Positions 952 to 40,298 of a stretch of DNA of 40,298 nt are shown in pieces (position 1 is the stretch's first letter; every line of letters begins with the position of its first letter). The notes beneath the pieces were generated by a model. The model was not told the origin of the DNA and did not search any database. It worked only from the letters and a program-made list of their open reading frames with translations. The stretch spans positions 1 through 40,298 of the forward strand of contig JAUCCH010000055.1 of NCBI GenBank assembly GCA_034676385.1, read 5' to 3'. This DNA is from Leucobacter sp. Its GTDB lineage: Bacteria > Actinomycetota > Actinomycetes > Actinomycetales > Microbacteriaceae. Made by a program: the position numbers and the translations under genes.

Positions 952-1374
952 CTTGGAGGTGCTCCCTGAGATGGGTTGGAATGGTCGTGTCGTAACAACT
1001 ATTCTCCCAGATCAGAGGGGCCTTTCCGTTATTTCAGAGCACTCTTTTGAGCCTAGTCATCGGTGAATCCGGGCTTAAGCGCACTAGACTGCCTGGCGCT
1101 TACATGTTCAACCGCGCCCTCGACCGGTCCTTTAAGTTGGTCCGCATCCTCGAGCCGATTCCGCGCTCGGGTGAGTTCTTCAACTCGACTTCGCTGTACC
1201 GCGGTCATTCCAAGAACTGTCTGGAGCGTTCTTGCCGACGGTGCCAATCCATACTCATTCATGAAATGAGACAATCAGAAATTCGAATTCTTACGCAACC
1301 ACAAGTCGCTGAGTCAGCGATTCCAATTGAGGTTCACTGGCGATTCGCTTGCGGTAAGGCTAGACAGCCACGCC

Positions 1375-1791
1375 CTAAGCACTGACAAGAAGCTGGTCAC
1401 GTCGCAGATAAGCATAGCTTTGTGGTGCCGTTGAATTCGGTTCGACCTCTTTGAGCGGAAGCGGCTGCTCAAAAGACATAGCTTCCTCGACAACGATGGC
1501 AAATGCAATCTCTTTGCCCTCGTAGTAACTGAAAAATGCTGCCTGTCCAATTACCCCTGATTCGCCATAGCGAGCCCAGATAGCTTCGGGACTATCTTCA
1601 ACAATCTCATCAATATTGAATGTGCCTAGCACGCGGCTCACGGGCGCAGTCGCGTAAACGATCACAGTTTTTATGTCTGCAGCGAGCCGGCGCTTACGAA
1701 ATTCGACTGTCTTGGCGCCTTGAAAGATCGCTTCAGCGTACTCAGGGTGAATCGACATCAGTGCGACGCGTTCAGTTGCTGCTCGACCCAT
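1375..1791 (-). CDS. ASCH (PUA-like) domain protein
   Basis: 138 aa. 'LMSIHPEYAEAIFQGAKTVEFRKRR ... IAFAIVVEEAMSFEQPLPLKE' fits the ASCH beta-barrel pattern. It overlaps the upstream EVE gene by 34 nt on the same strand, consistent with an operon. Confidence 0.5.
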   Translation of the reverse strand: MGRAATERVALMSIHPEYAEAIFQGAKTVEFRKRRLAADIKTVIVYATAPVSRVLGTFNIDEIVEDSPEAIWARYGESGVIGQAAFFSYYEGKEIAFAIVVEEAMSFEQPLPLKEVEPNSTAPQSYAYLRRDQLLVSA

Positions 1792-2204
1792 GCAATACCC
1801 TCCGTGTTCTTGACTTCGACCACTGACTGAGGAGCAGCCTTGACCACCTTATTCGATATCAGCTCCGAAAGTCCCCAAGTTGGTATCATGAACCGATCAT
1901 GTCTAGACAAAATCGTCAAGACAGATCGCTTCCACCTTCCATGGAGCGCTTCGATCTCCACCGGAGAATATACGGTTCGCTTGAACGAGAGCGCCGCAGT
2001 TGCAGATGGGTCGATACCCTTATGGGATCCTTCAGCGATACCGACCGCGCTTACCGCACCATCACCCTTACGAGTTCCTTGAGAACGGTAGAAGAGAAGG
2101 AGCGCTCCAGGAGGAATGCTCGATTGAGGTGCTCTACACAGGTAAGCCTTTCGTATCGCATTACCGTGCGCACGAGTGTTTGTGTTTAATCCGGGAAGAA
2201 GCAT
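1758..2204 (-). CDS. EVE (PUA-like) domain protein
   Basis: 'NTRAHGNAIRKAYL...PPGALLLFYRSQGTRKGDGAVSAVGIAEG ... ILSRHDRFMIPTWGLSELI' parallels the EVE/THYN1 core (WDGVRNYQARNFLRxM..GDxxFFYHS....IVGIAEIV ... LFTRQRLSIQPLTxEEF). The first beta-strand appears to be missing. Confidence 0.5.
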   Translation of the reverse strand: MLLPGLNTNTRAHGNAIRKAYLCRAPQSSIPPGALLLFYRSQGTRKGDGAVSAVGIAEGSHKGIDPSATAALSFKRTVYSPVEIEALHGRWKRSVLTILSRHDRFMIPTWGLSELISNKVVKAAPQSVVEVKNTEGIAWVEQQLNASH

Positions 2205-2255
2205 GCTCCCTGAAGCACCGGGGACTTCCGCGTCTGGAAAAGTCCGTCATACCAC

Positions 2256-3287
2256 TCAGGGACGATTGGAACTACGAATATTGGTTGCCCGGCTCGAATC
2301 GCAGGAGGCCCATATTTGATATGAAACTATCCAGCCCAGTAGAGCTTTGACCTTCAGCGGGATCAAGGGTCTTGACATAGAAGCTTTCATCGCAGGTCTT
2401 CTTCCAGCGAGTCTGAATCCAAACTCAGGCAGGAACTCGGCCAACCGGTCCTTCTTATCTTTAACCTCAACAAAGATGTCACTCGGTCGTCCTGGCTCAC
2501 GTTCTGCCCAACGAAGAACGGCTTTTAAGAGCAATTCACCAAGACGACGCCCGTTTGCATGGTCGGCAACTTTGAATGTCGAGAGCTTGATCGCGCGTCG
2601 AAGGTTGTCGCTTGGATGTTCATCGGAAATCTTAAGAAGTGCAATGCCGTCGTAGGTTCCATCAGCTTGCCGAATAACCCAGCAGCGACGATTCACAGCG
2701 TCCCTTTTCAGCCGCCCTAGCCATGCGTCAAAATCAGGTGCATAATCTTCTCGCAAGCCGTCAAAGATGGATTGCGATGGATCAAGATTGTACGCAGGAA
2801 AAACCTCTACTTGCGGCGGCGGTAGCGGTGCCTCAGGATGCCAGAGGTTAAGCCGGTGTGCTGCTTCATCCGGACGGAGCACCCTTGGTTCGTGGCCAAG
2901 TTGAATTGCGCGAGAACGTAACTTCCTATCGTTCGTGACAAGAAAGTCCACAGCACCAATATGTAGCGCTGAGAGTATTCGTGCATCCCGTTGGTCGTTA
3001 TCGTTCAGATTTAATGGGTAGCAATCCCAAACCTCATCGGGCACTTGGGTTTCTTCTAGGGCCGCATACTTCCTAAAGGCAGCAAGGTTTTGCCGTCGAT
3101 GGGCCGGATCCCTTGTTTGCGAAAGGTCATCGCTTGATGCAGGGTGAACCCAAACTGTGTGCCCGTGCTTCGTTGCATGACTCAGAAAACGACTGACATG
3201 AGGCTGCACTCGTTCAAGTCCACCAGCGAAAGGCTCAGCTGCAATGATCACATTGGTATCGATCAAGAATGACATCGCTCGCTGCAT
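2256..3287 (-). CDS. PIN-domain nuclease fused to a C-terminal GNAT acetyltransferase domain
   Basis: N-terminus 'MSFLIDTNVIIAAEP ... NDQRDARILSALHIGAVDFLVTNDRKL' carries the PIN acidic-residue layout (D in IDTN, DARIL, VTND). The C-terminus 'CWVIRQADGTYDGIALLKI ... FKVADHANGRRLGELLLKAVLRWAE ... RLAEFLPEFGFRLAG' matches GNAT motifs A/B. A possible alternative start is the Met 4 codons downstream (MSFLID). Confidence 0.6.
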   Translation of the reverse strand: MQRAMSFLIDTNVIIAAEPFAGGLERVQPHVSRFLSHATKHGHTVWVHPASSDDLSQTRDPAHRRQNLAAFRKYAALEETQVPDEVWDCYPLNLNDNDQRDARILSALHIGAVDFLVTNDRKLRSRAIQLGHEPRVLRPDEAAHRLNLWHPEAPLPPPQVEVFPAYNLDPSQSIFDGLREDYAPDFDAWLGRLKRDAVNRRCWVIRQADGTYDGIALLKISDEHPSDNLRRAIKLSTFKVADHANGRRLGELLLKAVLRWAEREPGRPSDIFVEVKDKKDRLAEFLPEFGFRLAGRRPAMKASMSRPLIPLKVKALLGWIVSYQIWASCDSSRATNIRSSNRP

Positions 3288-3463
3288 ATAGCCTCCCTCG
3301 CTGGAGCTCTTCCCCCTAGGCTACCGGGGCCTAGAACTTTATTGAATCGCTCGATCTTCAGAATGCCAGTAGCCCGCCTGAAAGCTCTATGCTCTCGCCG
3401 CGAGCAATGCGCATATCCCTCAAGTCCTGCCGGCTATTTCATAGCCCGCAGCTTTCGGCACAC

Positions 3464-3784
3464 TTAGACAGCTAGTGCGGGTGAAACGCCTAAGTTTTCA
3501 ACAGTGATAAACACGGTGTTGGCGTTCTCTTGATTCGTGTAGTTCCTCTTGGGAACTCGCTCAGACTCAAACTGGGCAAGTACCGTCGGGCGCGAGAGCA
3601 CTCTATTTGACTCGGCGAGTAATTCATTCGAATTGGCAAGCCCTCTATTTGACTCCGCGAGATCCTCCAGCTGTTTCCACGCAAACATGAGTAGCACTAC
3701 AGCGACAATGACAGCTTCAAACGAGCAAACCGCCTGCCATTCGTCGGCAGTCGGGAAACCATCAAATCGCCACCATTCAGACAT
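3464..3784 (-). CDS. small hypothetical protein (one predicted TM helix plus a repeated LAESNR coiled segment); weak call
   Basis: ATG at 3784..3782 lies 6 nt outside the IS3 copy 1 end. The product has 'AVIVAVVLLMFAW' and a duplicated ~20-bp DNA repeat (CTCTATTTGACTCNGCGAG x2). The ORF-track version (3464..3895) starts inside the IS and is probably artefactual there. Confidence 0.2.
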   Translation of the reverse strand: MSEWWRFDGFPTADEWQAVCSFEAVIVAVVLLMFAWKQLEDLAESNRGLANSNELLAESNRVLSRPTVLAQFESERVPKRNYTNQENANTVFITVENLGVSPALAV

Positions 3785-3891
3785 AGATTGTATGGGCTGT
3801 GTCAAGTTTCGTAGACGTGAGAACGCTTGATTATTGATTACGGGCTGAAGATCAGGCCACAGCCCTTTCCGCTGCCTGGAGGTTTGAACGG

Positions 3892-4761
3892 TCAAAGAAC
3901 GCCTGCATCACCGACATCGGGGTGCGATACCCCGAGGGTGGAGTGGCGACGCTTCCGGTTGTAGAACACCTCAATATATTCAGCAACCGCAAGCCTTGCC
4001 CTCGCCCGGGTGGCATAGTGGTGATGATGCCAATGCTCGTTCTTCAGCGAAGCAAACCAGCTTTCGGCGACGGCATTGTCCCAGCACACCCCAGTTCTTC
4101 CCACTGAGAGTCTCAGATCCATCAGCCTGGCCGCGTCAGCGAATTCAGCAGACGTGTATTGGGCACCTTTGTCGCTGTGAAATATTGCGTTCCCGGCGGT
4201 GTAGCCGGCGCGATGCGCCATCGTGAGCGCATCAACCATCAGCGACGTTCTCATATGGGCTGCCGTCTGCCATCCGACCACCATTCTTGTGGTCAGATCA
4301 ATCACCGTCGCAAGATACAGCCAACCTTCGCCAGTTTTGAGGTACGTGATGTCGCCCACGAGGCAGGTTGTTGGAACCGGGGGTGTGAACCGACGCCCGA
4401 TGAAGTCACGCCGGATACCGGCATCGGGCGCGGGGATCGTGGTTCGTTTCGTGGCGCGCGGCTGAATCCCTTGAATCCCGAGCTCTCGCATGAGCTGCCA
4501 CACCAGCCATGGAGACACCGTCATCCCTTGAGCAGCAAGTTCGGCATGAATGCGCCGCACCCCAAGGATTTTGTGGTGATCGATCCAGATCTTCCCGATC
4601 AGATCGGAGAGCTCTTGCCGCCGTATCTTTCGGGCATCAGGTGCTGCATGTCGCCGCTGCTTCCATGCGTAAAAACCCGCACGATGCACTTTCAGCAGTC
4701 GACACATGAACGTGACAGCATGTTGGCCTTCTTCGTGTTCGATCAGCTCGTACTTGCGCAC
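3892..4761 (-). CDS. IS3-family transposase OrfB (rve/DDE integrase core); the C-terminus is altered by a 1-nt insertion relative to copy 2
   Basis: It is identical to copy 2 OrfB apart from one M/V substitution until '...RKRRHSTLG'. Then copy 1 has CCCC (3930-3933) where copy 2 has GGG on the other strand, giving 'VSHPDVGDAGVL*' instead of the consensus-like 'YRTPMSVMQAFF...'. Confidence 0.8.
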   Translation of the reverse strand: MRKYELIEHEEGQHAVTFMCRLLKVHRAGFYAWKQRRHAAPDARKIRRQELSDLIGKIWIDHHKILGVRRIHAELAAQGMTVSPWLVWQLMRELGIQGIQPRATKRTTIPAPDAGIRRDFIGRRFTPPVPTTCLVGDITYLKTGEGWLYLATVIDLTTRMVVGWQTAAHMRTSLMVDALTMAHRAGYTAGNAIFHSDKGAQYTSAEFADAARLMDLRLSVGRTGVCWDNAVAESWFASLKNEHWHHHHYATRARARLAVAEYIEVFYNRKRRHSTLGVSHPDVGDAGVL

Positions 4762-5066
4762 TACCGCTGTTCCTTCGCGAAGAAGGCCGCCGCTTTTTTT
4801 AGGAACGTGTTTTCCTCACGCAACCGGTTGATCTCACGTTGCATCTCGTGCGGGTCTTGCGAGTAAGGGTCAGGGGTTCGGCGGGCTGACCCTGAACCAG
4901 TGCCATGCGTGCCGGTTGCTTTCCCAACCCATTTCCCGAGCGTTGATTCGTTGATTTCTAGGTCGCGGGCGACCTGGGCTCGTGTTTTGCCGAGCTCGGT
5001 TACCATGCGCACAGCGTCGGCTTTGAACTCGTCACTGAACTCTCGACGGGGTCGGAGTGTAGACAT
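4761..5066 (-). CDS. IS3-family transposase OrfA (HTH)
   Basis: The 101-aa product is identical to copy 2 OrfA. An A7G (T7 on this strand, 4794-4800) slippery run lies near the 3' end, where OrfB overlaps in the -1 frame. Confidence 0.85.
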   Translation of the reverse strand: MSTLRPRREFSDEFKADAVRMVTELGKTRAQVARDLEINESTLGKWVGKATGTHGTGSGSARRTPDPYSQDPHEMQREINRLREENTFLKKAAAFFAKEQR

Positions 5067-5243
5067 CTGATGGGATTCCTTCCAATGGAGTTCTCCTGTC
5101 TACAACAAGCATGACACCTCAATTGATGACTGGAGGTAGCAATCATGCCCTGCCTGATTGGCCACCACCCATGCAGTTTCCTACTAGATGGGCTCACGAA
5201 CATGGTAACGGGGGAACTATTCACGAACAGCCCGGCGCGGAAA

Positions 5244-6144
5244 CTAGTAGATGACTCCGTCCGGACCAACCCTAGGCGGCGCAAGCCGCTCTCGAGACGC
5301 AACCAAAGCGGCTGTGGCTGCACCATGAGCAGATAGGTCAAGCAGAGTGTTCTGAAAAGTGGCACCAGTACCTTCACGCTCTATCCGGAAGAGACAGGGA
5401 AGTCCGGAATCGCGCAAGACATTCTTGGCCTCTCGACTGAACAGCTCAAGAGCAGACGTTATCTGCACTTCCAACGCAATATACGCGCGAGCGATCAAGG
5501 TCTTCAACCCTTCAGTTGCCATTCGGATGAAGCTGATGAAGTCAGTCTCAACAGCTTCCCCCCCAGAAGTCGGCGAGCACTTCGCCGACTTTCGGTCCAC
5601 GCGCTTGCAAGAGATCACTGAGTTGCAACTTCAGCGTGGTCTCAGAGCCGTGCTCACCATGTTTGACACGCACGCTGACGAAGTTGAGAATCGTGTGGCC
5701 ATGTTCAGATGCGTTACGTAGTTCCCAGACGGTGCGGTAGTAGCCATCTTTGTCGTACGCATTCTCAAACACGGAACAGACTGCCCTCTTCGCGTCTGCA
5801 CCGAAGTGAACCTCGGCTTCATGCTCAATGCGGCGACGCAGCGCAACGTATTGCGATACCCAGCTCTCCACCAGTCGTCCTACTTCACTCCTGAAGGCAC
5901 CGTCGGATCCCATGCGCTGGGCAGCACCATTCCCAGAGAGAGCAACCAGCAATTCGTTGGCAGAGTCAATCGCGCGGCTGGTCACGGTCTGTCCTGAGAA
6001 AGCGTGAATGGCGAGAACGGCGCTAGTGAGGTCCTCAGCTTCCTGGTCAGAGAGCGGATGATCTTCGACGTAGGTGTAAGAGGCCGGAGCCTCGGGAAGC
6101 GCGACGAGGCGCCCAACGTACCAGACTGACTCAGAGCTGCGCAT
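5244..6144 (-). pseudogene. hypothetical ~313-aa protein with an Rx4H (HEPN-like) motif, frameshifted at a C7/G7 homopolymer
   Basis: Two overlapping ORFs (5548..6144 and 5244..5618) join into one protein if the 7-C run at 5558-5564 is read as 6. The product contains 'WELRNASEHGH' (R-N-x-x-x-H). Confidence 0.5.
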
Positions 6145-7147
6145 TTCTCCATACTGGACGATGCGGAGCTTGAAATGTATTGGGCACTCCGCTCGTCCTC
6201 ATAACCAGTTCCCCGGATGCATCGTCACCGCCTGGAACTCATTACTGCGGTTCAAGTCAGGGCGCCCGCTTGGAGTCCCGAGTAAACCTGGAGTTGACTC
6301 TTGACGGGGTACTTGGGGACTGAATGCATGTATCAACTTACTTTGTCGCATTGCACCCCTGGTCTCACGCGCCTGCGATGTCAAGATGCCGGTTTACCCC
6401 TTGGGCGAGAATACTCCTAGCTCTAGCGTCAACGGCTGGATCGCAGGAGCATCCTATCCCTCAAAATGTGTCGATCGTACCTGTAGCGTGTAGAGACCGT
6501 CAATATTGAGACGCCTTTCGCCGGATAGAGGTTCGCACGAACAAGGCCTGATCGGGCATGATGTCATCATGCTCATTGTCGTACTTGACTCCAATACCCT
6601 TCACTCGGATGCCTGGCTCACAGGACCACATGGTGGGAAGCTGGTCGATCTAGCCGCAGAGGGCCGCGTTCGAGTCGTAGTGCCCGAAGTCGTGCGGGAT
6701 GAAATCCTCCGTCAGCGCCGCGAAGCTGTCAAGAAAGCATGTAAAGAGGCCGACAAGGCATTGACCGCGATGGAGAAAGCCGGTGTCGATGTGAGTGAGT
6801 CGAAAGTCCGCCTGCAGGAGACCTTCGACAGGATAGACAGCGAACTCGATGACGCCTTCACGGAGCTCTTTGAAAGAGTCGGCGTCGTGATGGAGCCCAC
6901 CCCCGGGGTGAACGTCAACAAATATGTGGAACGCGACCTGGCACGTCGGCGTCCGTTTCTCGAAACTGAGCAGGAGCAGAAAAAGAAGAGTTTCGGCTTC
7001 AGAGATGTGGTGATCTGGGAAACAGTTCTCTCGGTTTTCGACGGAGCTGATCCAGGAGATACCATTCTGTTCGTCACCGCTGACAAAGGCTTCCTCGAGC
7101 GCGGTGAGCCCACGGTCCACCGTGACCTCCTCGAGGACCTCGATGAG

Positions 7148-8239
7148 CTAGTGTCCCGCGCCGGTAGTTCGTTGTAATAGTCTTTTGAGGGATTCGAGGA
7201 TCTGTTCGGCGGGCTTGGTCCAAACGAAGGGCTTCGGATTCTCGTTCCATCCTTTAACCCAGGAGCGGATATCGTTCTCCAGCGCCCGGACGCTGCGGTG
7301 ATCGGAGCGTTGGAGTAAGTCGGCAGTGATGTACGCGAAGAACCGCTCGACTTGGTTGATCCAGGACGAGTACGTCGGAGTGAAGTGCAGGTGGAACCGG
7401 GGATGCTTCTCCATCCAGGTGACGATGCTCGGGCTCTTGTGGGTGCTGTAGTTGTCGCAGACCAGATGCACGTCGAGGTGCTGGGGGACTGCGGCGTCGA
7501 TCTTGGCCAGAAACTTCCTGAACTCGATCGCCCGGTGGCGGCGGTGGATGCTGGAGATCACGGTGCCATCGGCGGTGTTGAATGCCGCGAACAGACTGGT
7601 CGTGCCATGCCGGACGTAGTCATGGGTACGTTTTTCGGGCATGCCCGGCATCATCGGGAATGCCGGCTGTGATCTCGCCAGGGCCTGCACCTGCGATTTC
7701 TCGTCGACGCAGTAGACGACGGCCGCTTCGGGCGGGTCAAGGTACAGGCCGACGATGTCGTAGACCTTGTCCACGAATTGTGGGTCGTTGGAGAGTTTGA
7801 ACCCGTCTTCTCGGTGCGGTTTCAGCTCGAACGCTTTCCAGATTCGACCGATCGTGGACTTCGACAATCCGGAGCGTTCGGCCATCTTCGCCCGCGACCA
7901 ATGCGTGGCATTCCTCGGCGTCGACTCCAACGTGGCCACGACCACATCTTCGACCTGTTCGGCCGTGATCGTCGCCGGCCGCCCCGGCCGCGGCTCATCG
8001 ACCAGGCCATCCAGACGAGCCTCCAAGAACCGAGCGCGCCATTTGCTGACCGTGTTCGTCGAGCAGCCCACCTGTGCAGCCACCGTCTTGTTGTCCAGGC
8101 CTCCGCCGCAGCCGAGCACGATCCGGGACCGCAACGCCAACGCTTGTGAGGACTTCGCCCGGCGGGACCAGCGCAGCAGCTGCTCGCGCTCCTCGTTACT
8201 CAGGATCAAGTCGGCTTTCGGGCGTCCTGTTCTCGGCAT
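7148..8239 (-). CDS. IS630-family transposase (HTH + DDE)
   Basis: The 363-aa product has an N-terminal HTH (STNTVSKWRARF), a DDE core (VYCVDEKSQ ... LVCDNYSTHKS ... WINQVERFF) and the typical length. Its stop codon TAG is completed by the host-side C of the CTAG target. Confidence 0.85.
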   Translation of the reverse strand: MPRTGRPKADLILSNEEREQLLRWSRRAKSSQALALRSRIVLGCGGGLDNKTVAAQVGCSTNTVSKWRARFLEARLDGLVDEPRPGRPATITAEQVEDVVVATLESTPRNATHWSRAKMAERSGLSKSTIGRIWKAFELKPHREDGFKLSNDPQFVDKVYDIVGLYLDPPEAAVVYCVDEKSQVQALARSQPAFPMMPGMPEKRTHDYVRHGTTSLFAAFNTADGTVISSIHRRHRAIEFRKFLAKIDAAVPQHLDVHLVCDNYSTHKSPSIVTWMEKHPRFHLHFTPTYSSWINQVERFFAYITADLLQRSDHRSVRALENDIRSWVKGWNENPKPFVWTKPAEQILESLKRLLQRTTGAGH

Positions 8240-8285
8240 ACCCCATTCTACAACTTAACCAGAGGATTTCAGGCGCGCAACACTA
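7149..8285 (-). mobile_element. IS630-family insertion sequence (~1133 bp) flanked by a duplicated TA within CTAG
   Basis: The ends read 'CTAGTGTCCCGCGCC...' on both strands (15-bp terminal IRs, 13/15 identical). TA is at 7149-7150 and 8284-8285. Precise excision restores a continuous ORF. Confidence 0.75.
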
Positions 8286-9019
8286 GGAGTCGAGCGCGGA
8301 CGCATCATAAACGCTAAGGCGCTCAACCATGTCCTGGCCGTCATCACAAGCCTGCAGGAAGCGTCTCGAGCCAATGTCGCGACCGAGGCGGTGTACGCTC
8401 TGGCAGGCGAAGAGGTCGGCATCCAGTTGGTGCACGGTGGGGACTACGGCTATCCTAACTTCGTCAAGTTCACGGTGCCCGGTTTCGAGAGCCCCACCAT
8501 TTCCGAACTAGAACTGACCACAGATTTCAAAATGACTGAGAACGGTTCCACGGTCACCGCAACAGCCGACGTCACTCTCTATCTCGACGGCGCAGTGTTT
8601 AAGGGTGACTGGTACGGCTCAGAGGACGAATTATTCCACGTCGGCTCAGAACTTAATCAGCACTATTTCGAAGCCGATGCTGAGATGACCGTTCGGGCCG
8701 TCGTCGAGCTCGATGTGAGTCGCGGTGATCCTGTCGTGACGAACATTGAGCTCCACGACAAAGAAGATGACTAGATAGCCCCGATTGCTCGACGAGCCCT
8801 AGATACGACATGGCGCCCTCTCTTGAGGTCATCTGCGAGGAATCGAATAATGCCGATTCAATGTGTATGGAAACACAGCTCCTGATCGTCGAACGTACGC
8901 CCGAGCGCAAGCACATCTACTGGTTTCCCACCTACTAAGCATCTTCTGGCTTCGAGAATCCGTGGTGGTTAGAGCGGTGAGAGAGTAAACCACCCGAGGA
9001 GGAGCACTGGATATCGATT

Positions 9020-14472: not shown

Positions 14473-14955
14473 TTAGCCGTGGTTACTCTCGTCGAAACTG
14501 TTCACGAGCGATAGCGCCGCGCGCTCGATGTATTCCCTGAATGCTGCATCGTGCATGGGAGGCAGTTCGGCTTTGTCGAGTGCTGCGTGCATGTGCATGA
14601 GCCAGTGCTCCTTGGCCTTTGGCGTGACAGCGTAGGGTACGTGTCGCATGCGCAGGCGTGGGTGGCCTCGCTGCTCTGAGTACGTGGTCGGCCCGCCCCA
14701 GTACTGCTCGAGAAAGGTGCGGAGGCGCCATTCTGAGCCCTCCCAGTCGTCCTGCGGGTACATCGGCGAGAGCAATGGATCGTTCCGCACTCCCGCGTAG
14801 AAGTGGCCTACGATCAGTTCGAAAGTGGGTGTCCCGCCGACCTGCTGCCAGAGGGTGTCACTCATGGCAGCGCCATTCTCCTTGCTTCTGAGCGTGAGGT
14901 TTGGCGTGGGCGTGGTGGTAGGAGTGGGGTTGGCGGGCTGTTGTTCGTTCGTCAT
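14473..14955 (-). CDS. glbO: group II truncated hemoglobin
   Basis: 'FYAGVRNDPLLSPMYP...LRTFLEQYWGGPTTYSEQRGHPRLRMRHVPYAV...HWLMHMHAALD' matches the trHbO consensus. Confidence 0.8.
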   Translation of the reverse strand: MTNEQQPANPTPTTTPTPNLTLRSKENGAAMSDTLWQQVGGTPTFELIVGHFYAGVRNDPLLSPMYPQDDWEGSEWRLRTFLEQYWGGPTTYSEQRGHPRLRMRHVPYAVTPKAKEHWLMHMHAALDKAELPPMHDAAFREYIERAALSLVNSFDESNHG

Positions 14956-15846
14956 AGCGACCCTCCTTGGGGGCGTGGCAGTTCGTTTGCGAGTTTGATG
15001 CCCTGATCCTCGAAGCTTTTCTTGATCAGTGCCCGCAGTTCTCGTTGCACGGAGTACTGTGCCTCGGGGCGGGTGCGCACGGTGAGGCGCAGGGTTGCGC
15101 GATCGCCGAAGACGCTTTCCAGGCCGAGGATCTCGGGCTCGCCGGTGACTCGTCGAGCAAACTGCGCCGACCGCAAGAGCTCTCGTGCGCTCTCAAGAGC
15201 GACGCGCTCGACGAGCTCTAGATCTTCGCTCGCCGACACGGTGATGTCGATGATGGCCCTGCCCCATCCTTGGGAAGCATTGCCAAGCGTCAGCACCTCT
15301 CCATTTCGAATGAACCAAAGTGTGCCGTCGCTTGCGCGAACGCTGGTGATGCGGATTCCGACGTTCTCGACCGTACCGGTGATCGTGCCGACGGTGACCA
15401 GGTCGCCGACACCCATCTGATCCTCGAACACCATGAAGAGGCCGTTCAGAATAATCTTTGACAACATTCTGGGCGCCGAACGCGAGCCCGGCCGCAATGA
15501 AACCTGCAGAGGTGATCACTGCGGCAATGTTCACCTGAAACTGCACCAGAATGAGGAAGAACGCGACGACGACGGTAGCCCAGTTGATGATATTTCGGCC
15601 GAAAGTGCCAAGTGTGCGAGTGCGTTGCACCGCACGTGCATTGAGATACGGGCCCGCGGCGAGTTCCTGGGTCGAATCGACATCTTGCGCTCGCTTGACG
15701 CCACTCACCAGACTGCGCACCGTGCGAGCCAGCATCAGGCGAAGTAGCCAGTTGGCTAGCAGGCAGGCAACAATGACGATTAAGACCCGCCAGAGCACTT
15801 CATACTGGACAAAGAACGCAGTAATGGCACCCCAAATCTCTGCCAT
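14952..15846 (-). pseudogene. mscS: MscS-family mechanosensitive channel, split by a 1-nt deletion near 15465-15475
   Basis: ORF 15193..15846 gives the TM region to 'GLAFGAQNVVKDY'. ORF 14952..15497 resumes with 'SKIILNGLFMVFEDQMGVGDLVTVGTITGTVENVGIRITSVRASDGTLWFIRNGEV'. Together they form the MscS signature once a 1-nt frame change is allowed. Confidence 0.75.
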
Positions 15847-25659: not shown

Positions 25660-27294
25660 ATGAAGCCCCTCGACCCGAGACTCCTGCGCTATGCCAGCGG
25701 TGCCCGCACCGTCCTCGGTGTCGGGGGGCTACTCGGAGTAGTTCGCACGCTTGCGGTCATCACTTGGTGCTGGTGCATCGCTCAATCGCTCGCCCTCCTA
25801 GTGCTACCGGTGCTTGGTGGCATGGGCGGTGCCGCTGGCCGAGTAGCAGAAGGCGCGTATTCCGCGAGCACGCTTCCGTGGCTTGTCACCGTGGCATTGG
25901 TGGCGATCCTCGTACGCTCGGCCGCAAGCTGGGGAATGGATGCACTTGCGGCGCGAGGCGCGGTGCGCGTGAAATCGCAACTGCGTGAAGCGGCACTCAA
26001 CGCAATTGATTCTCGTTCACCAGAGGCCCTGAATTCGCGGTCTGATGCGAGCGGGGCAACCGCACTCGGTCGCGGTCTTGACGCTCTTGATGGATATTTC
26101 TCCGGCTACCTGCCTCAGTTGATCCTTACGATCTGCGCGACGCCATTACTGGTGCTTGCAGTGCTCCTCGCTGATCCATTGAGCGGGCTGGTGGTGGTGA
26201 TCGTCTTTCCGGTGATCCCGGTGTTTATGATCCTCATAGGCCTAGCGACTCAGGGCGTGCAGAAGAAGCAGTGGGAGCAGCTGCAGCACCTTTCTGGATC
26301 CTTCCTTGATGTAGTTGAAGGCCTCACGACGCTGAAGATCTTTCGCCGAGAAGCTCGGCAAGTCCAGCGGATTACTCGTGAAACAGGGGAATATCGCAGT
26401 CGAACCATGCAGGTGCTTCGCGTCACATTCCTTTCCGGGTTCGTGCTTGATCTCGCGGGCACGTTCTCGATCGCACTCGTAGCAGTGACGGTCGGTACAA
26501 GGCTAGTTTCAGGTGAATTTCCCCTTGCGCTTGGCCTTTTCGTGCTGCTCCTGCTGCCCGAAGCGTTCATACCGATTCGTGCGGTTGGTACGGCCTTCCA
26601 CGCGTCAACCGAAGGGTTGGCAGCGGCAGAGCAGGTATTTGAAATTATCGAGGATCAGGGCGCAGACGATTCTCGTCCTCTCAATCTCGTGACAAGCAAC
26701 TCAATTTCCTTTGACCGAGTGAGCATTGAGCGAGGCGCGCACACGGTTGGGCCGGTCTCGCTTCAGGTTCAGCCCGGTGAAATTGTGGCTCTCGTGGGCC
26801 CTTCCGGAACGGGAAAGAGCACCCTGGTGTCTGCGTTGCTCGGTTTTGCGTTGCCATCAAGCGGAGTGCTGGCTCGCCCCGAAACGCTCGCCTGGGTTGG
26901 GCAGCGGCCGGGTCTCCTACATGGGACTATCGCCGAAAATGTGGCGCTGGGTGATGAGCTGGCTGATCCTCGAATGGTGCAACGAGCGCTCGAATCCGTG
27001 GGCCTCGCTGAAATCTCTCAAGACCGCGAACTCGGAGCTTAAGGGCTCGGTCTTTCAGGAGGCCAAGCGCAGCGCGTCGCGATTGCACGAGCGCTGTATC
27101 GTGCTTGGCGACTTGATGCCGCGGCGCTGGTACTTGATGAGCCGAGCTCCGCGCTGGACGCCGAAAGTGAGGCGCGAATTGCAGGTGTGCTGCGTGCGGA
27201 GGCTGCGGCTGGGCGGGCTGTGTTGCTCATCAGCCACCGAACCGCGTTGATAGAAAGTGCGGATCGCGTGGTGCGCATGGGGGAGCTTTCGTGA
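25660..27294 (+). pseudogene. cydD: ABC transporter CydD (thiol reductant exporter needed for bd oxidase assembly) with an in-frame TAA at 27040-27042
   Basis: A TM domain is followed by Walker A 'VALVGPSGTGKST'. The ORF stops at '...RELGA*' but continues in the same frame with 'GLGLSGGQAQRVAIARAL ... LVLDEPSSALD ... LLISHR' (signature, Walker B, H-loop) to a TGA overlapping the cydC GTG start (GTGA). Confidence 0.75.
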
Positions 27295-35265: not shown

Positions 35266-35317
35266 ACGGTGTGTGCTCGCGTGCAGCGAGCCGGTTTTTC
35301 GATGTTTCGAGGTATGT

Positions 35318-37970
35318 GTGAACGAGCAGCAAGCAAACGCCACGACAGAGGTCGACGCGGAGGCTTATGACTTCCAGGCCATTCAAGACCGGTGGCTACC
35401 GGTCTGGGACGAGCTGAAGCCTTTCGAGGTGGGCAACGATCTTACGGGTGAGAAGCCAAAGAAGTACGTGCTTGATATGTTCCCGTACCCCTCCGGCGAC
35501 CTGCATATGGGTCACGCCGAGGCGTTCTGCTTTGGTGACGTGCTCGCCCGCTACTGGCGTGGGCGCGGCTATGACGTGCTGCACCCGATCGGTTGGGACA
35601 GTTTCGGTCTGCCCGCAGAGAACGCCGCAATCAAGCGAGGCATCGATCCTCGCGAGTGGACGTACGCAAATATCGCGCAGCAAAAGACGAGCTTCCGTGT
35701 GTACGCACCCAGCTTTGACTGGAGTAGGCAGCTGCACACGAGCGACCCCGAGTACTACAAGTGGAACCAGTGGCTGTTCCTCAAAATGTACGAAAAGGGC
35801 CTTGCGTACCGTAAGGCAAGCTGGGTCAACTGGGATCCGGTAGACCAGACGGTGCTTGCAAACGAGCAGGTGCTCGCCGATGGCACCTCGGAGCGCTCGG
35901 GCGCGATGGTGGTTAAGAAGAAGCTGACCCAGTGGTACTTCAGGATCACCGACTACGCGGATCGTCTGCTCGATGACCTGGATGCGCTCGAGGGCCAGTG
36001 GCCCACCAAGGTGCTGAGCATGCAGCGCAACTGGATCGGCAGGTCCGAGGGCGCTGAGGTCGAGTTCGAAATTGAAGGACCCGAGGACCGGGTTCCGGTC
36101 TTTACGACCCGCCCCGATACTCTATTCGGCGCAACATTTATGGTGGTGGCTCCAGACAGCGATCTCGCTTCGGACTCGCCGCAAGTGCGTCCGAAGAAGT
36201 TCAGATGCAGTTTGCGGAATACCTCACTGCGACGCAGAAGCAGAGCGAGATCGATCGCCAGACGGCAGATCGCGACAAGACCGGCGTCTTCCTCGATCAC
36301 TTCGCGATTAACCCCGTTAACGGCGAACGTATTCCCGTGTGGGCATCCGATTACGTGCTCGCCAAGTATGGTCACGGCGCCATCATGGCCGTCCCCGCTC
36401 ACGATCAGCGTGACCTTGATTTTGCACTGAAGTTTGAGCTGCCTGTGCGCGTTGTTGTTGAGGTGCGTGATGAGGACGGCGAAGTACTGCCTAACCCGCA
36501 GACCATGCAGGCATAGCAACGGCCGGCGACGGCCGGATCGTGAACTCCGGTGATCTTGATGGCTTGGGCAAGGTTGAAGCAATCGCCAAGGCGATCGAAC
36601 TGCTCGAAGCGCGCGGCACGGGGCGGGCGACGAAGACCTACCGCCTGCGTGACTGGTTGATCTCGCGCCAGCGTTACTGGGGTACCCCGATTCCGATTCT
36701 TCACGGTGCTGAAGACGGGAATGCGGGCGAGATGCGCCCAGTTGAGCAGAGCAAGCTACCTGTTCGTCTCCCCGCAACTGAGGGACTCGACCTGAAGCCC
36801 AAGGGATCCTCGCCCCTGGGTGCCGCAACCGAGTGGTCGAACGTGACGGACGCAGACGGCCACGCTTGGACCCGAGACCCAGACACGATGGATACTTTCG
36901 TCGATAGTTCCTGGTACTTCCTGCGTTTCCTTTCGGCGACTGACGACACCCAGGCCTTCGACCCTGCGCTCGTCAACGCCTGGGGTCCGATCGACCAGTA
37001 TGCGGGTGGCGTCGAGCACGCAATTCTGCATCTGCTCTACTCACGCTTCATTACGAAGGTGCTGCACGATCTCGGCTATCTCGATTTTGAAGAACCGTTT
37101 ACGGCACTGCTGAACCAGGGCATGGTGCTGCAAGACGGCGCGAAGATGTCGAAGTCGAAGGGCAACCTCGTCGAGTTCGCTTCGGAGCTGCAGGCGCACG
37201 GTGCCGACGCGCTGCGCGTAACTCTCGCGTTTGCTGGCCCTCCCGAGGACGACATTGACTGGGCCGATGTTTCGGTGCAGGGTTCGGCGAAGTTCCTCGC
37301 ACGTGCTTGGCGTGTAGCTGGGGACGTCTCGAGCGACGTGGGTGTCGACTACTTTCGCTGGTGGTGACGCGGGGCTTCGGCGCCACACGCACAAGTTACT
37401 CGCCGATGCGCCCGGCTTGGTCGAACACTACAAGTTCAACGTGCTTGTCGCTCGCCTCATGGATCAGGTCAACGTGACCCGTAAGGCTATCGACTCTGGC
37501 GTGGGCTCGGCTGATCCCGCTGTGCGCGAGTCCGCAGAAGCGATCGCGATGATCCTCTCACTCTTCGCTCCCTACGCTGCTGAAGACATGTGGGCGAAGC
37601 TCGGACATGAGCCAACGGTTGCGCTTCAGGTGTGGCCTTCTGCAGACGAATCGTTGCTCGTGGAGAACGAGGTCACAATGGTCGTGCAGGTTGACGGCAA
37701 GGTGCGCGAGCGCCTCACGCTTCCGCCTCGGTCAGCGAGGCTGAGGCTGAGGCAGCTGCGATGGCATCTGAGTCAGTGAAGCGCGCGATCGGTGACCGCC
37801 AGATTGTGAACCTGATTGTGCGAGTTCCAGAAGATCGTGAGCATCGCGACGAAGCCATAACTTCGATCTGCGATCGTTATGAGCGGCCCGCATCCTCGGA
37901 TTTGAGGGTGCGGGTCGTTCGTTCTGTACGGGAAACTTATCTCCCGCGCTTGGCGACAAAAAGTACGTAA
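35318..37970 (+). pseudogene. leuS: leucyl-tRNA synthetase split into five ORFs by four single-nucleotide deletions (as assembled)
   Basis: The HMGH class-I motif ([15 protein letters not shown]) and KMSKS are present. LeuS-like sequence continues across ORFs 35273..36430, 36205..36516, 36540..37367, 37342..37779 and 37761..37970, with frame changes near 36175, 36508, 37350 and 37725. Each is consistent with one missing base. The 3' tail past ~37850 overlaps holA and is probably a read-through artefact. Confidence 0.85.
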
Positions 37971-38960: not shown

Positions 38961-39030
38961 GTTTCAAGCCTAGTCTGAGGTGTCATGCTTGTTGTAGACA
39001 GGAGAACTCCATTGGAAGGAATCCCATCAG

Positions 39031-39336
39031 ATGTCTACACTCCGACCCCGTCGAGAGTTCAGTGACGAGTTCAAAGCCGACGCTGTGCGCATGGTAACCG
39101 AGCTCGGCAAAACACGAGCCCAGGTCGCCCGCGACCTAGAAATCAACGAATCAACGCTCGGGAAATGGGTTGGGAAAGCAACCGGCACGCATGGCACTGG
39201 TTCAGGGTCAGCCCGCCGAACCCCTGACCCTTACTCGCAAGACCCGCACGAGATGCAACGTGAGATCAACCGGTTGCGTGAGGAAAACACGTTCCTAAAA
39301 AAAGCGGCGGCCTTCTTCGCGAAGGAACAGCGGTAG
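39031..39336 (+). CDS. IS3-family transposase OrfA (HTH)
   Basis: Identical to copy 1 OrfA. Confidence 0.85.
   Translation: MSTLRPRREFSDEFKADAVRMVTELGKTRAQVARDLEINESTLGKWVGKATGTHGTGSGSARRTPDPYSQDPHEMQREINRLREENTFLKKAAAFFAKEQR
39297..39304 (+). other. A7G slippery run for programmed -1 ribosomal frameshifting (OrfA to OrfAB)
   Basis: 'CTAAAAAAAGCG' lies 30 nt before the orfA stop. The -1 frame is open from here into orfB (KKSGGLLREGTAVV-RKYELIEH...), as in IS3/IS911-type elements. Confidence 0.6.
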
Positions 39337-40244
39337 TGCGCAAGTACGAGCTGATCGAACACGAAGAAGGCCAACATGCTGTCACGTTCATGTGTCGACT
39401 GCTGAAAGTGCATCGTGCGGGTTTTTACGCATGGAAGCAGCGGCGACATGCAGCACCTGATGCCCGAAAGATACGGCGGCAAGAGCTCTCCGATCTGATC
39501 GGGAAGATCTGGATCGATCACCACAAAATCCTTGGGGTGCGGCGCATTCATGCCGAACTTGCTGCTCAAGGGATGACGGTGTCTCCATGGCTGGTGTGGC
39601 AGCTCATGCGAGAGCTCGGGATTCAAGGGATTCAGCCGCGCGCCACGAAACGAACCACGATCCCCGCGCCCGATGCCGGTATCCGGCGTGACTTCATCGG
39701 GCGTCGGTTCACACCCCCGGTTCCAACAACCTGCCTCGTGGGCGACATCACGTACCTCAAAACTGGCGAAGGTTGGCTGTATCTTGCGACGGTGATTGAT
39801 CTGACCACAAGAATGGTGGTCGGATGGCAGACGGCAGCCCATATGAGAACGTCGCTGGTGGTTGATGCGCTCACGATGGCGCATCGCGCCGGCTACACCG
39901 CCGGGAACGCAATATTTCACAGCGACAAAGGTGCCCAATACACGTCTGCTGAATTCGCTGACGCGGCCAGGCTGATGGATCTGAGACTCTCAGTGGGAAG
40001 AACTGGGGTGTGCTGGGACAATGCCGTCGCCGAAAGCTGGTTTGCTTCGCTGAAGAACGAGCATTGGCATCATCACCACTATGCCACCCGGGCGAGGGCA
40101 AGGCTTGCGGTTGCTGAATATATTGAGGTGTTCTACAACCGGAAGCGTCGCCACTCCACCCTCGGGTATCGCACCCCGATGTCGGTGATGCAGGCGTTCT
40201 TTGACCGTTCAAACCTCCAGGCAGCGGAAAGGGCTGTGGCCTGA
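39336..40244 (+). CDS. IS3-family transposase OrfB (rve integrase core, DDE), intact copy
   Basis: The 302-aa product ends with the family-typical '...RKRRHSTLGYRTPMSVMQAFF'. The GTG start overlaps the orfA stop. Confidence 0.85.
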   Translation: MRKYELIEHEEGQHAVTFMCRLLKVHRAGFYAWKQRRHAAPDARKIRRQELSDLIGKIWIDHHKILGVRRIHAELAAQGMTVSPWLVWQLMRELGIQGIQPRATKRTTIPAPDAGIRRDFIGRRFTPPVPTTCLVGDITYLKTGEGWLYLATVIDLTTRMVVGWQTAAHMRTSLVVDALTMAHRAGYTAGNAIFHSDKGAQYTSAEFADAARLMDLRLSVGRTGVCWDNAVAESWFASLKNEHWHHHHYATRARARLAVAEYIEVFYNRKRRHSTLGYRTPMSVMQAFFDRSNLQAAERAVA

Positions 40245-40298
40245 TCTTCAGCCCGTAATCAATAATCAAGCGTTCTCACGTCTACGAAACTTGACACA

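Follow-up and report, generated by a model that had tools for sequence, protein, structure and literature searches.

Two described groups of nucleases come closest to the genes analyzed here. According to the HEPN survey, an invariant arginine and histidine four residues apart, with an asparagine after the arginine and located at the end of a helix, are regarded as the mark of the RNase active site (PMC3710099). A polar residue (N, D, or H) right after the conserved arginine serves as a criterion, and non-catalytic HEPN domains have typically lost the motif (PMC3710099). In general, the HEPN motif is of the form Rx4-6H and is expected to lie at the C-terminal end of a core helix, where the next loop begins, and to face the solvent. 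The second group, the DUF4935 proteins, consists of proteins of about 350 aa. Their N-terminal PIN domain has a conserved acidic tetrad, includes a long helical insert, and precedes an alpha/beta C-terminal region, and their genes are usually monocistronic (PMC5499597). In 2017, this C-terminal region was described as lacking a homologue of known structure (PMC5499597).

We analyzed a window of 40,298 nucleotides (i.e., the whole stretch of Leucobacter sp. DNA under study) in which two genes, hereafter genes A and B, lie head to head, 424 bp apart. A sequence-only reading had presented them as a divergent pair of predicted RNases, both inactivated, in a pattern to be expected of a toxic or defence locus undergoing silencing. 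We think it probable that they are instead two independent single-gene nuclease modules, placed head to head by chance in a variable, IS-rich, and defence-island-like part of an actinobacterial chromosome, and not a two-gene system: gene A would likely encode a HEPN-type RNase, gene B an ordinary PIN_12 protein split by an IS630 element, and their lesions would give no evidence of selective silencing. The features concerned are the following.

3798..5121, minus strand: IS3-family element, copy 1, with orfA at 5066..4761, orfB at 4761..3892, and an A7 slippery site at 4794-4800
5244..6144, minus strand: gene A, HEPN-like, from an undescribed family of about 300 aa; 299 aa once one G is deleted
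5558..5564: C7 run (G7 on the coding strand), +1 frameshift site of gene A
5701..5724, minus strand: codons E141-LRNASE-H148, Rx4H motif of gene A
6145..6275, minus strand: non-coding leader of gene A, about 130 nt, conserved and common to four homologous loci
6569..7150, plus strand: 5' part of gene B, codons 1-194, complete PIN_12 domain with D7, E45, D146, and D172
7151..8283, minus strand: IS630-family element; target CTAG, duplicated TA at 7149-7150 and 8284-8285
8286..8774, plus strand: 3' part of gene B, codons 195-356 and stop, linker helix and NTF2/VirB8-like alpha+beta domain

As written, gene A is made of two open reading frames (6144..5548, 198 aa, and 5618..5244). The homopolymer frameshift seen in the first reading was located: the frame is lost in the C7/G7 run, which is one base too long. 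Indeed, four intact 299-aa homologues read TTC TGG GGA GAA here, with GGGGAG at the site itself, where the window has TTCTGGGGGGGAA, with one additional base. This run is the only homopolymer of at least 7 bases apart from the IS3 slippery site. The protein had been estimated at about 313 aa, a length that we correct to 299 aa. A 33-codon N-terminal extension was considered and rejected, since a TGA closes its frame in the window and the homologous locus L001 has this frame shifted. Between gene A and its homologues, DNA similarity begins about 130 nt upstream of the ATG and ends at the stop codon; being limited to the leader and the gene, it indicates that gene A moves as a single-gene unit. 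The leader contains a possible 8-bp stem immediately before the GGAG ribosome-binding site. Its predicted structure showed no convincing covariation among five sequences, and an Rfam search of positions 5000-9000 gave no match.

The motif ELRNASEH is present as announced, at residues 141-148 of the gene A product. Its value as a HEPN mark has to be qualified: the bare Rx4H pattern appears in 52% of shuffles of the gene A protein, hence not above chance, and it is its invariance across the family, not its mere presence, that makes it meaningful. We collected 57 relatives at E <= 1e-3 and aligned 55 sequences, with a mean column identity of 20%. Of its columns, none is invariant except those of R143 and H148, R137 and N144 being at least 90% conserved, and the motif is likewise invariant in alignments of 5 and 16 sequences. 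N144 is precisely the polar residue expected after the arginine. A second Rx4H, at R103, is unconserved. In the AlphaFold2 model (pLDDT 95.6), a helix spans residues 134-147 and is followed by a loop starting at H148; three beta-hairpins and extra helices surround the helical bundle. Family conservation and model together make it very probable that this Rx4H has a function.

Profile searches left the family apart from known ones. Gene A had no match in Pfam, NCBIfam, or PADLOC, and a Pfam scan of the 55 family members and of low-GC relatives revealed no recurrent family; a single member of the 55 showed a HepT-like match (E = 0.04), and the low-GC relatives none. PDB sequence searches with the 5- and 55-sequence profiles returned only noise, and a Foldseek comparison with the viral structures of BFVD gave nothing (best TM 0.27). 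In PHROGs, only the distant members P0079 and P0095 matched a family, the uncharacterized phrog_30874. Hence, the family is absent from Pfam, NCBIfam, and PADLOC and is missed by current annotation and defence-finder pipelines. Gene A most likely encodes a HEPN-type RNase that acts on its own and needs no metal, of the kind involved in abortive infection or mobile-element conflict, with predicted nuclease activity, dimerization, toxicity, and a defence role. By analogy with other HEPN enzymes, two subunits would join their Rx4H motifs to cut RNA once triggered, and the beta-hairpins and flanking helices, perhaps with the conserved 5' leader, may hold the nuclease in check.

The loci of gene A relatives, for which metagenomes were also scanned with a degenerate DNA motif, present several genomic contexts. 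One relative lies on a conjugative element (TrbL, DUF6112, M23 peptidase, ParB, Prim-Pol, and ArdC) and one on an element carrying KilB, DUF87, and a D12 methylase; others are found near a methylase, Prim-Pol, and DUF2637, near an integrase, an HTH, and an SNF2 protein, or with an SLFN/AlbA_2 neighbour. One follows hsdR-hsdM directly and one has a reverse transcriptase on one side and a STAND-Mrr protein on the other. Scanning genome contigs yielded one locus of the family, in Agreia pratensis, where the gene stands solo among MerR, MFS, and TetR genes, and scanning viral contigs yielded none. We tentatively propose that these proteins form a hitherto undescribed family of HEPN-type RNases that act alone in defence or abortive infection, with an alpha/beta architecture of its own (the bundle and three beta-hairpins), which would extend from Actinobacteria to low-GC bacteria, with distant phage-associated relatives, and be carried on conjugative or integrative elements, at least once directly after hsdR-hsdM; the leader, which travels with the gene, could act as a regulator in cis or as an antitoxin-like RNA silencing the nuclease.

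For gene B, the proposed PIN-like, DUF4935-type domain was recovered as PIN_12 (PF16289) at residues 4-175 (E = 2.6e-24; 87 bits for a cut-off of 32), with the profile covered fully, from 1 to 172. Across 40 sequences, the acidic residues of the PIN active site, D14, E52, D153, and D179 (numbered on P0006; D7, E45, D146, and D172 in the window protein), show no variation, and the domain has a PIN fold. The predicted size of about 356 aa also held, since excising the IS restores an open reading frame of 356 aa that matches intact homologues over its whole length (76% identity), the joined halves giving a gap-free alignment. The C-terminal region, a helix and a six-stranded sheet, models as an NTF2/VirB8-like fold. 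Gene B is an ordinary monocistronic member of the PIN_12/DUF4935 family. In its product, a linker connects the PIN domain, which retains the four acidic residues and is predicted to be a Mg-dependent nuclease, to the NTF2/VirB8-like domain, which probably binds a partner or ligand. The neighbours of its relatives differ across four distinct contexts, among them GmrSD/DUF5677/YobI, SIR2_2 with a second PIN_12, and type I restriction-modification with IS21 and an integrase. In PADLOC-DB v2, the sole match of gene B is the PtuB coiled-coil (E = 0.0017). In both families, that of gene A and that of gene B, the gene occurs singly, as cargo of conjugative or integrative elements and of defence islands.

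The IS630 insertion had been correctly recognized: the element, at 7151-8283, splits gene B after codon 194. CTAG stands on both of its sides, and its terminal inverted repeats are imperfect (7148-7162 and 8272-8286, 15 nt including the flanking CTA/TAG, 87% complementary). Its transposase (8239..7148, 363 aa) ends in a TAG formed with the duplicated TA; it scores 263.8 bits on NF033545 (cut-off 100) and also contains DDE_3. The truncated gene B frame runs into the element and stops at 7177, giving 202 aa. Gene B is truly and recently split, at a CTAG in the inter-domain linker, and the open reading frame of its PIN domain is intact. On the other side, gene A indeed adjoins IS3 copy 1, whose end at 5121 lies 122 bp from the gene A stop codon; the left end of this copy was sought and not located. 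Copy 1 and the second copy, at 38976-40298, differ only by a single C in the C-run at 3933 (C4 vs. C3). The genes at 1375-3287 strongly match PADLOC PDC-M11A/B, and the data support placing genes A and B in a defence-island-like, IS-rich stretch beside this candidate pair. No tRNA gene was found at an island border. The lower GC content attributed to the region proved marginal (0.567 for gene A and 0.56-0.567 for gene B, with the window at 0.578 and the core at 0.584).

Could the two genes nevertheless form one toxin or defence locus, for instance a toxin with its partner, or a pair of effectors sharing one divergent promoter, both genes silenced because the locus is costly? Their head-to-head arrangement over 424 bp, the prediction of a nuclease for each, the disruption of both, and the IS-rich region beside PDC-M11 all speak in its favor. 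However, neighbourhood data largely refute it and we hold it to be very improbable. In tblastn and family-profile hmmsearch of all fetched loci, the two families were together only in the window; no co-occurrence was observed at 26 loci with gene A relatives and 7 with gene B relatives, a sample of tens of loci mostly on short metagenomic contigs, in which a functional coupling peculiar to one lineage may have escaped notice. The sequence-only reading had itself named homologues that are never adjacent as grounds for its own rejection, and this is what we found at these loci. A 426-aa gene divergent to the closest gene B homologue was considered as a counterpart of gene A and ruled out, being unrelated to it. 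Moreover, the limits of DNA similarity make gene A a single-gene unit, DUF4935 genes are described as monocistronic (PMC5499597), and the PIN domain frame outlives the IS630 insertion. The lesions do not single out these genes either: housekeeping genes of the same contig are at least equally damaged. The leucyl-tRNA synthetase gene leuS is spread over four frames, with at least four frameshifts within 2.6 kb (junctions at about 36180, 36500, 37350, and 37730), and is colinear with residues 2-847 of the Thermus enzyme; the MscS gene is split by one frameshift, cydD carries a substitution-type TAA stop (27040-27042), and PDC-M11A is split. The core proteins of this genome have no close relatives in the database: of those checked, most are singletons at 90% identity, and a globin alone clusters with a Leucobacter sp. 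protein. Of the claim that both genes are inactivated, the split of gene B and the broken frame of gene A as written stand, but the gene A indel is of doubtful reality and the PIN domain of gene B is whole in its 202-aa frame. Given the broken leuS, MscS, and cydD genes and the IS3 C-run difference, this indel may come from assembly error or general decay. The gene A defect, a one-base expansion of a G run, is either an assembly error or one of many recent lesions. That it is real, gene A being a recent true pseudogene, one among many and not specifically silenced, in a genome with ongoing IS expansion and general pseudogenization, is quite possible. The cydD stop, a substitution, argues for real decay and not for pure indel error; two IS families are present, with IS3 copies identical outside the C-run; and lesions affect island and core genes alike. 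On the contrary, at least four frameshifts in the essential leuS would be hard for a living cell to bear unless it had a second copy, the two 1.3-kb IS3 copies differ solely in homopolymer length, the gene A indel sits in the sole run of at least 7 bases besides the IS3 slippery site, and dN/dS downstream of the lesions (0.11-0.15 for gene A and 0.135 for gene B) equals upstream and intact-versus-intact values, so that there is no relaxation downstream of either lesion. Such a combination is typical of assembly indel errors.

The other question is whether gene A is a nuclease at all. Its R-N-x3-H could be non-catalytic and bind a nucleotide, a ligand, or DNA, in the way of HEPN domains fused to nucleotidyltransferases; the protein, of a generic helical-bundle fold, would then take part in the maintenance, regulation, or exclusion of mobile elements. 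This would agree with the lack of any profile link to a HEPN family and with several close homologues lying within conjugation or replication gene sets, not defence islands. We regard it as rather unlikely, because an R-N-x3-H at a helix end counts as an RNase site in the HEPN survey (PMC3710099) and distant relatives occupy classic defence contexts (after hsdR-hsdM; beside a reverse transcriptase and a STAND-Mrr protein).

Should the members of the gene A family be confirmed as RNases, the known nucleases of mobile elements and defence would gain a further single-gene HEPN effector. The NTF2/VirB8-like assignment closes a gap for the C-terminal region of DUF4935. Since leuS itself is broken on this contig, single-base frameshifts cannot be read here as biology, and a story of a silenced toxic locus that rests on such lesions is unsafe. 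These findings have no bearing on any long-standing open question.

PrrC is encoded inside a type I restriction-modification cassette, and the gene A relative directly after hsdR-hsdM recalls this placement. More generally, gene A resembles the standalone HEPN RNases (AbiD/AbiF Abi_2, AbiJ, AbiU2, AbiV, PrrC/RloC, and RnlA/LsoA; PMC3710099) in its R-[N]-x3-H with a polar residue after the arginine at a helix end, in its largely helical fold, and in being a single gene with no fixed partner on mobile elements or in defence islands. It differs from them in that three beta-hairpins and additional helices surround its bundle and in having no recognized NTPase, CARF, or other fused sensor domain, and none of their Pfam, NCBIfam, or PADLOC models matches gene A or its relatives. 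The HepT/MNT toxins (PDB 7ae2, 5yep; HI0074, 1jog) are the best solved-structure HEPN matches, with 105-116 residues aligned, i.e., 79-83% of those chains, and they also carry Rx4H. On the other hand, gene A is twice as long, its sequence similarity to them is undetectable, and neither an MNT nucleotidyltransferase nor any other conserved neighbour was found at the loci of its family.

Compared with VapBC, gene B has no upstream VapB-type antitoxin gene, its neighbours vary between loci, and its product, with an additional C-terminal domain, exceeds VapC in length about 2.5 times. Within the PIN_12/DUF4935 family (PF16289), which belongs to the VapC-like group of the PIN superfamily (Matelska et al. 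2017, PMC5499597), gene B shows every feature described and differs in nothing essential, the window copy being simply interrupted by IS630.

Gene A (5244..6144, minus strand, HEPN-like) and gene B (6569-8774, plus strand, PIN_12/DUF4935) lie divergently in the following setting.

1375-3287, minus strand: PDC-M11, a candidate defence pair (PADLOC), adjoining the locus
3464-3895, minus strand: 143-aa ORF, predicted to contain a membrane helix, starting within sequence common to both IS3 copies
3798-5121 and 38976-40298: inverted IS3 copies of 1.3 kb, differing only by a single C in the C-run at 3933 (C4 vs C3)
5618..5244, minus strand: downstream ORF of gene A, in another frame, overlapping ORF 6144..5548
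5558-5564: homopolymer with the gene A frameshift, C7 on the plus strand, G7 on the coding strand
6144..5548, minus strand: upstream ORF of gene A, 198 aa, carrying WELRNASEH
6145-6275, minus strand: non-coding gene A leader, ~130 nt, conserved in five loci (the window and the fetched loci L016, L017, L019 and L001)
7151-8283: IS630-family element, 1133 bp, with imperfect terminal inverted repeats, CTAG on both sides and a duplicated TA

The deletion of one G from the G7 run yields a gene A protein of 299 aa, not the ~313 aa first estimated. Database searches returned intact homologues of the same length (85% and 77% identical, with 100% coverage). Aligned as DNA, the homologues have TTC TGG GGA GAA GCC where the window has TTCTGGGGGGGAAGC, one base longer, so the homopolymer frameshift announced by the sequence-only reading is truly present in the sequence as given. 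This run and the A7 slippery site of IS3 are the sole homopolymers of at least 7 bases in the window.

Gene A has no match in Pfam, PADLOC, NCBIfam or the PDB sequences. Only four relatives turned up among 5.8 billion proteins in a word-indexed search; an exhaustive profile search against 1.84 billion representatives gave 57 (E <= 1e-3), nearly all of ~300 aa. No recurrent Pfam family was found among 55 members. The ELRNASEH (Rx4H) motif, seen in the 198-aa ORF, had been taken as the mark of a HEPN RNase. The bare motif says little, since Rx4H is present by chance in 52% of shuffles of the protein, and a second copy, at R103, is unconserved. Its family-wide invariance gives it weight: across the 55 aligned sequences, whose mean column identity is 20%, R143 and H148 are the sole invariant columns, R137 and N144 are conserved at 90% or more, and the consensus is YRxxWELRNxxQH. 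The 85%-identical homologue was modelled with AlphaFold very confidently (pLDDT 95.6, pTM 0.90); the model is mainly helical with three beta-hairpins, and its helix 134-147 stops exactly at the motif, followed by a loop. The conserved motif and its predicted helix-end position agree with the HEPN motif rules.

Close homologues of gene A occur in a conjugative element (TrbL, two DUF6112 genes, M23 peptidase, ParB, Prim-Pol, ArdC), in a KilB/DUF87/methylase element, next to a methylase, Prim-Pol and DUF2637, flanked by an SNF2 helicase and an integrase module, and beside an SLFN/AlbA_2 gene; in Agreia pratensis the homologue stands alone. A degenerate-motif scan added relatives from metagenomes, several of them in DNA of 25-33% GC; one low-GC relative lies directly 3' of the type I R-M genes hsdR-hsdM (L037 7587-11956), and a second has a reverse transcriptase on one side and a STAND-NTPase-Mrr protein on the other (L043 310-3341). 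DNA similarity to the homologues runs from ~130 nt upstream of the ATG to the stop codon, which indicates that gene A is transferred as a single gene plus leader. The leader, which has no Rfam match, contains a possible stem (CGAGCGG...CCGCTTCG) immediately 5' of the ribosome-binding site. We thus demonstrated, for gene A, motif invariance, a helix-end position in the model and single-gene mobile and defence contexts. Its product may be a dimeric, metal-independent RNase that would act only once triggered, for example by phage infection or by loss of the element; control would lie with the additional helices and beta-hairpins and perhaps with the leader.

Gene B starts at ATG 6569 and is interrupted after codon 194 by IS630, as had been proposed. 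Joining 6569-7150 to 8286-8774 restores the expected 356 aa, which align end to end with intact homologues (closest, 76% identity). Residues 4-175 are Pfam PIN_12 (PF16289, formerly DUF4935; E = 2.6e-24), and all four PIN acidic residues are invariant in 40 homologues, mostly from Micrococcales (Arthrobacter, Microbacterium, Curtobacterium, Brachybacterium, Clavibacter). With this PIN fold and acidic tetrad comes a C-terminal domain, previously called unannotatable, which is modelled as NTF2-like. Gene B could be a Mg-dependent endonuclease whose NTF2-like domain would bind a partner or ligand, and both genes may serve defence or conflict between mobile elements.

The IS630 insertion is clean and falls in the inter-domain linker. 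The transposase (363 aa, 263.8 bits with the IS630 model of NCBIfam) has no stop inside the element; its ORF ends at 7148-7150 on a TAG completed by the TA duplication at the CTAG target. The surviving gene B ORF of 202 aa (194 native residues and 8 IS-encoded) keeps the entire PIN domain, so inactivation of gene B is not established and the loss is that of the C-terminal domain.

The sequence-only reading had seen in these genes a divergent RNase pair, both inactivated, as would be expected if a toxic or defence locus were being silenced. Both frames are indeed disrupted. Coupling is not supported: by tblastn and profile hmmsearch of every fetched locus, the two families occur together only in the window. 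The divergent neighbour of the closest gene B homologue, a 426-aa gene, is unrelated to gene A. Gene B homologues adjoin GmrSD/DUF5677/YobI in one context, a second PIN_12 plus SIR2_2 in another, and in a further one have a type I R-M system, IS21 and an integrase in their vicinity. In L010, a Microbacterium-like contig, a second, divergent PIN_12 follows the PIN_12 homologue (1222-3825 and 6849-8291), with SIR2_2 nearby.

Many other genes are broken in the same 40-kb contig:

14952-15846, minus strand: frameshifted MscS-type mechanosensitive channel gene (MS_channel_1st in 15846..15193; MS_channel_2nd and 3rd in 15497..14952)
27040-27042, plus strand: in-frame TAA of cydD, first cydDC-type ABC transporter gene (25660..27290), just before the LSGGQ signature; the frame carries on normally past it
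35273-37776, plus strand: leuS (leucyl-tRNA synthetase, essential), over four reading frames

The leuS pieces align in order with residues 2-272, 273-372, 380-697 and 713-847 of Thermus LeuRS, with a further shift near 37730, which suggests either indel errors in the assembly or a decayed copy. PDC-M11A (PIN_3 and GNAT, E = 5e-92) is split into 3287..2256 and 2204..1758, profile positions 288-353 being unreadable; its partner PDC-M11B is an ASCH-domain protein (1791..1375, E = 2e-46). The IS3 C-run difference alters the orfB C-terminus (289 vs 302 aa). The dN/dS of gene A against intact homologues (0.11-0.15) is the same downstream and upstream of the frameshift, and that of gene B is likewise the same on both sides of the IS. 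Both lesions are hence very recent, or that of gene A is possibly not real. Be the cause an error-prone contig or a decaying genome, damage is not concentrated on the locus, so the argument for silencing fails.

The IS3-family element ends 122 bp past the gene A stop, at 5121, as the proposed proximity implied; the lower GC is marginal (0.56-0.567 vs 0.578 for the window), and the lowest, 0.517, belongs to the PDC-M11 stretch. The contig end falls inside IS3 copy 2, and the 143-aa ORF has no family match. Most of the window core proteins checked are singletons at 90% identity; only a globin falls in one cluster with a protein of Leucobacter sp.

The initial observation was largely right; its interpretation, a deliberately silenced coupled RNase pair, is not supported. 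What keeps its interest is the gene A family, rare, unannotated and HEPN-like, and the C-terminus of gene B. DUF4935 proteins are described as ~350 aa long and mostly monocistronic, with a C-terminal region that had no known structure (2017 PIN classification, PMC5499597); gene B is thus an ordinary member of this family, for whose C-terminus the model now suggests a fold.
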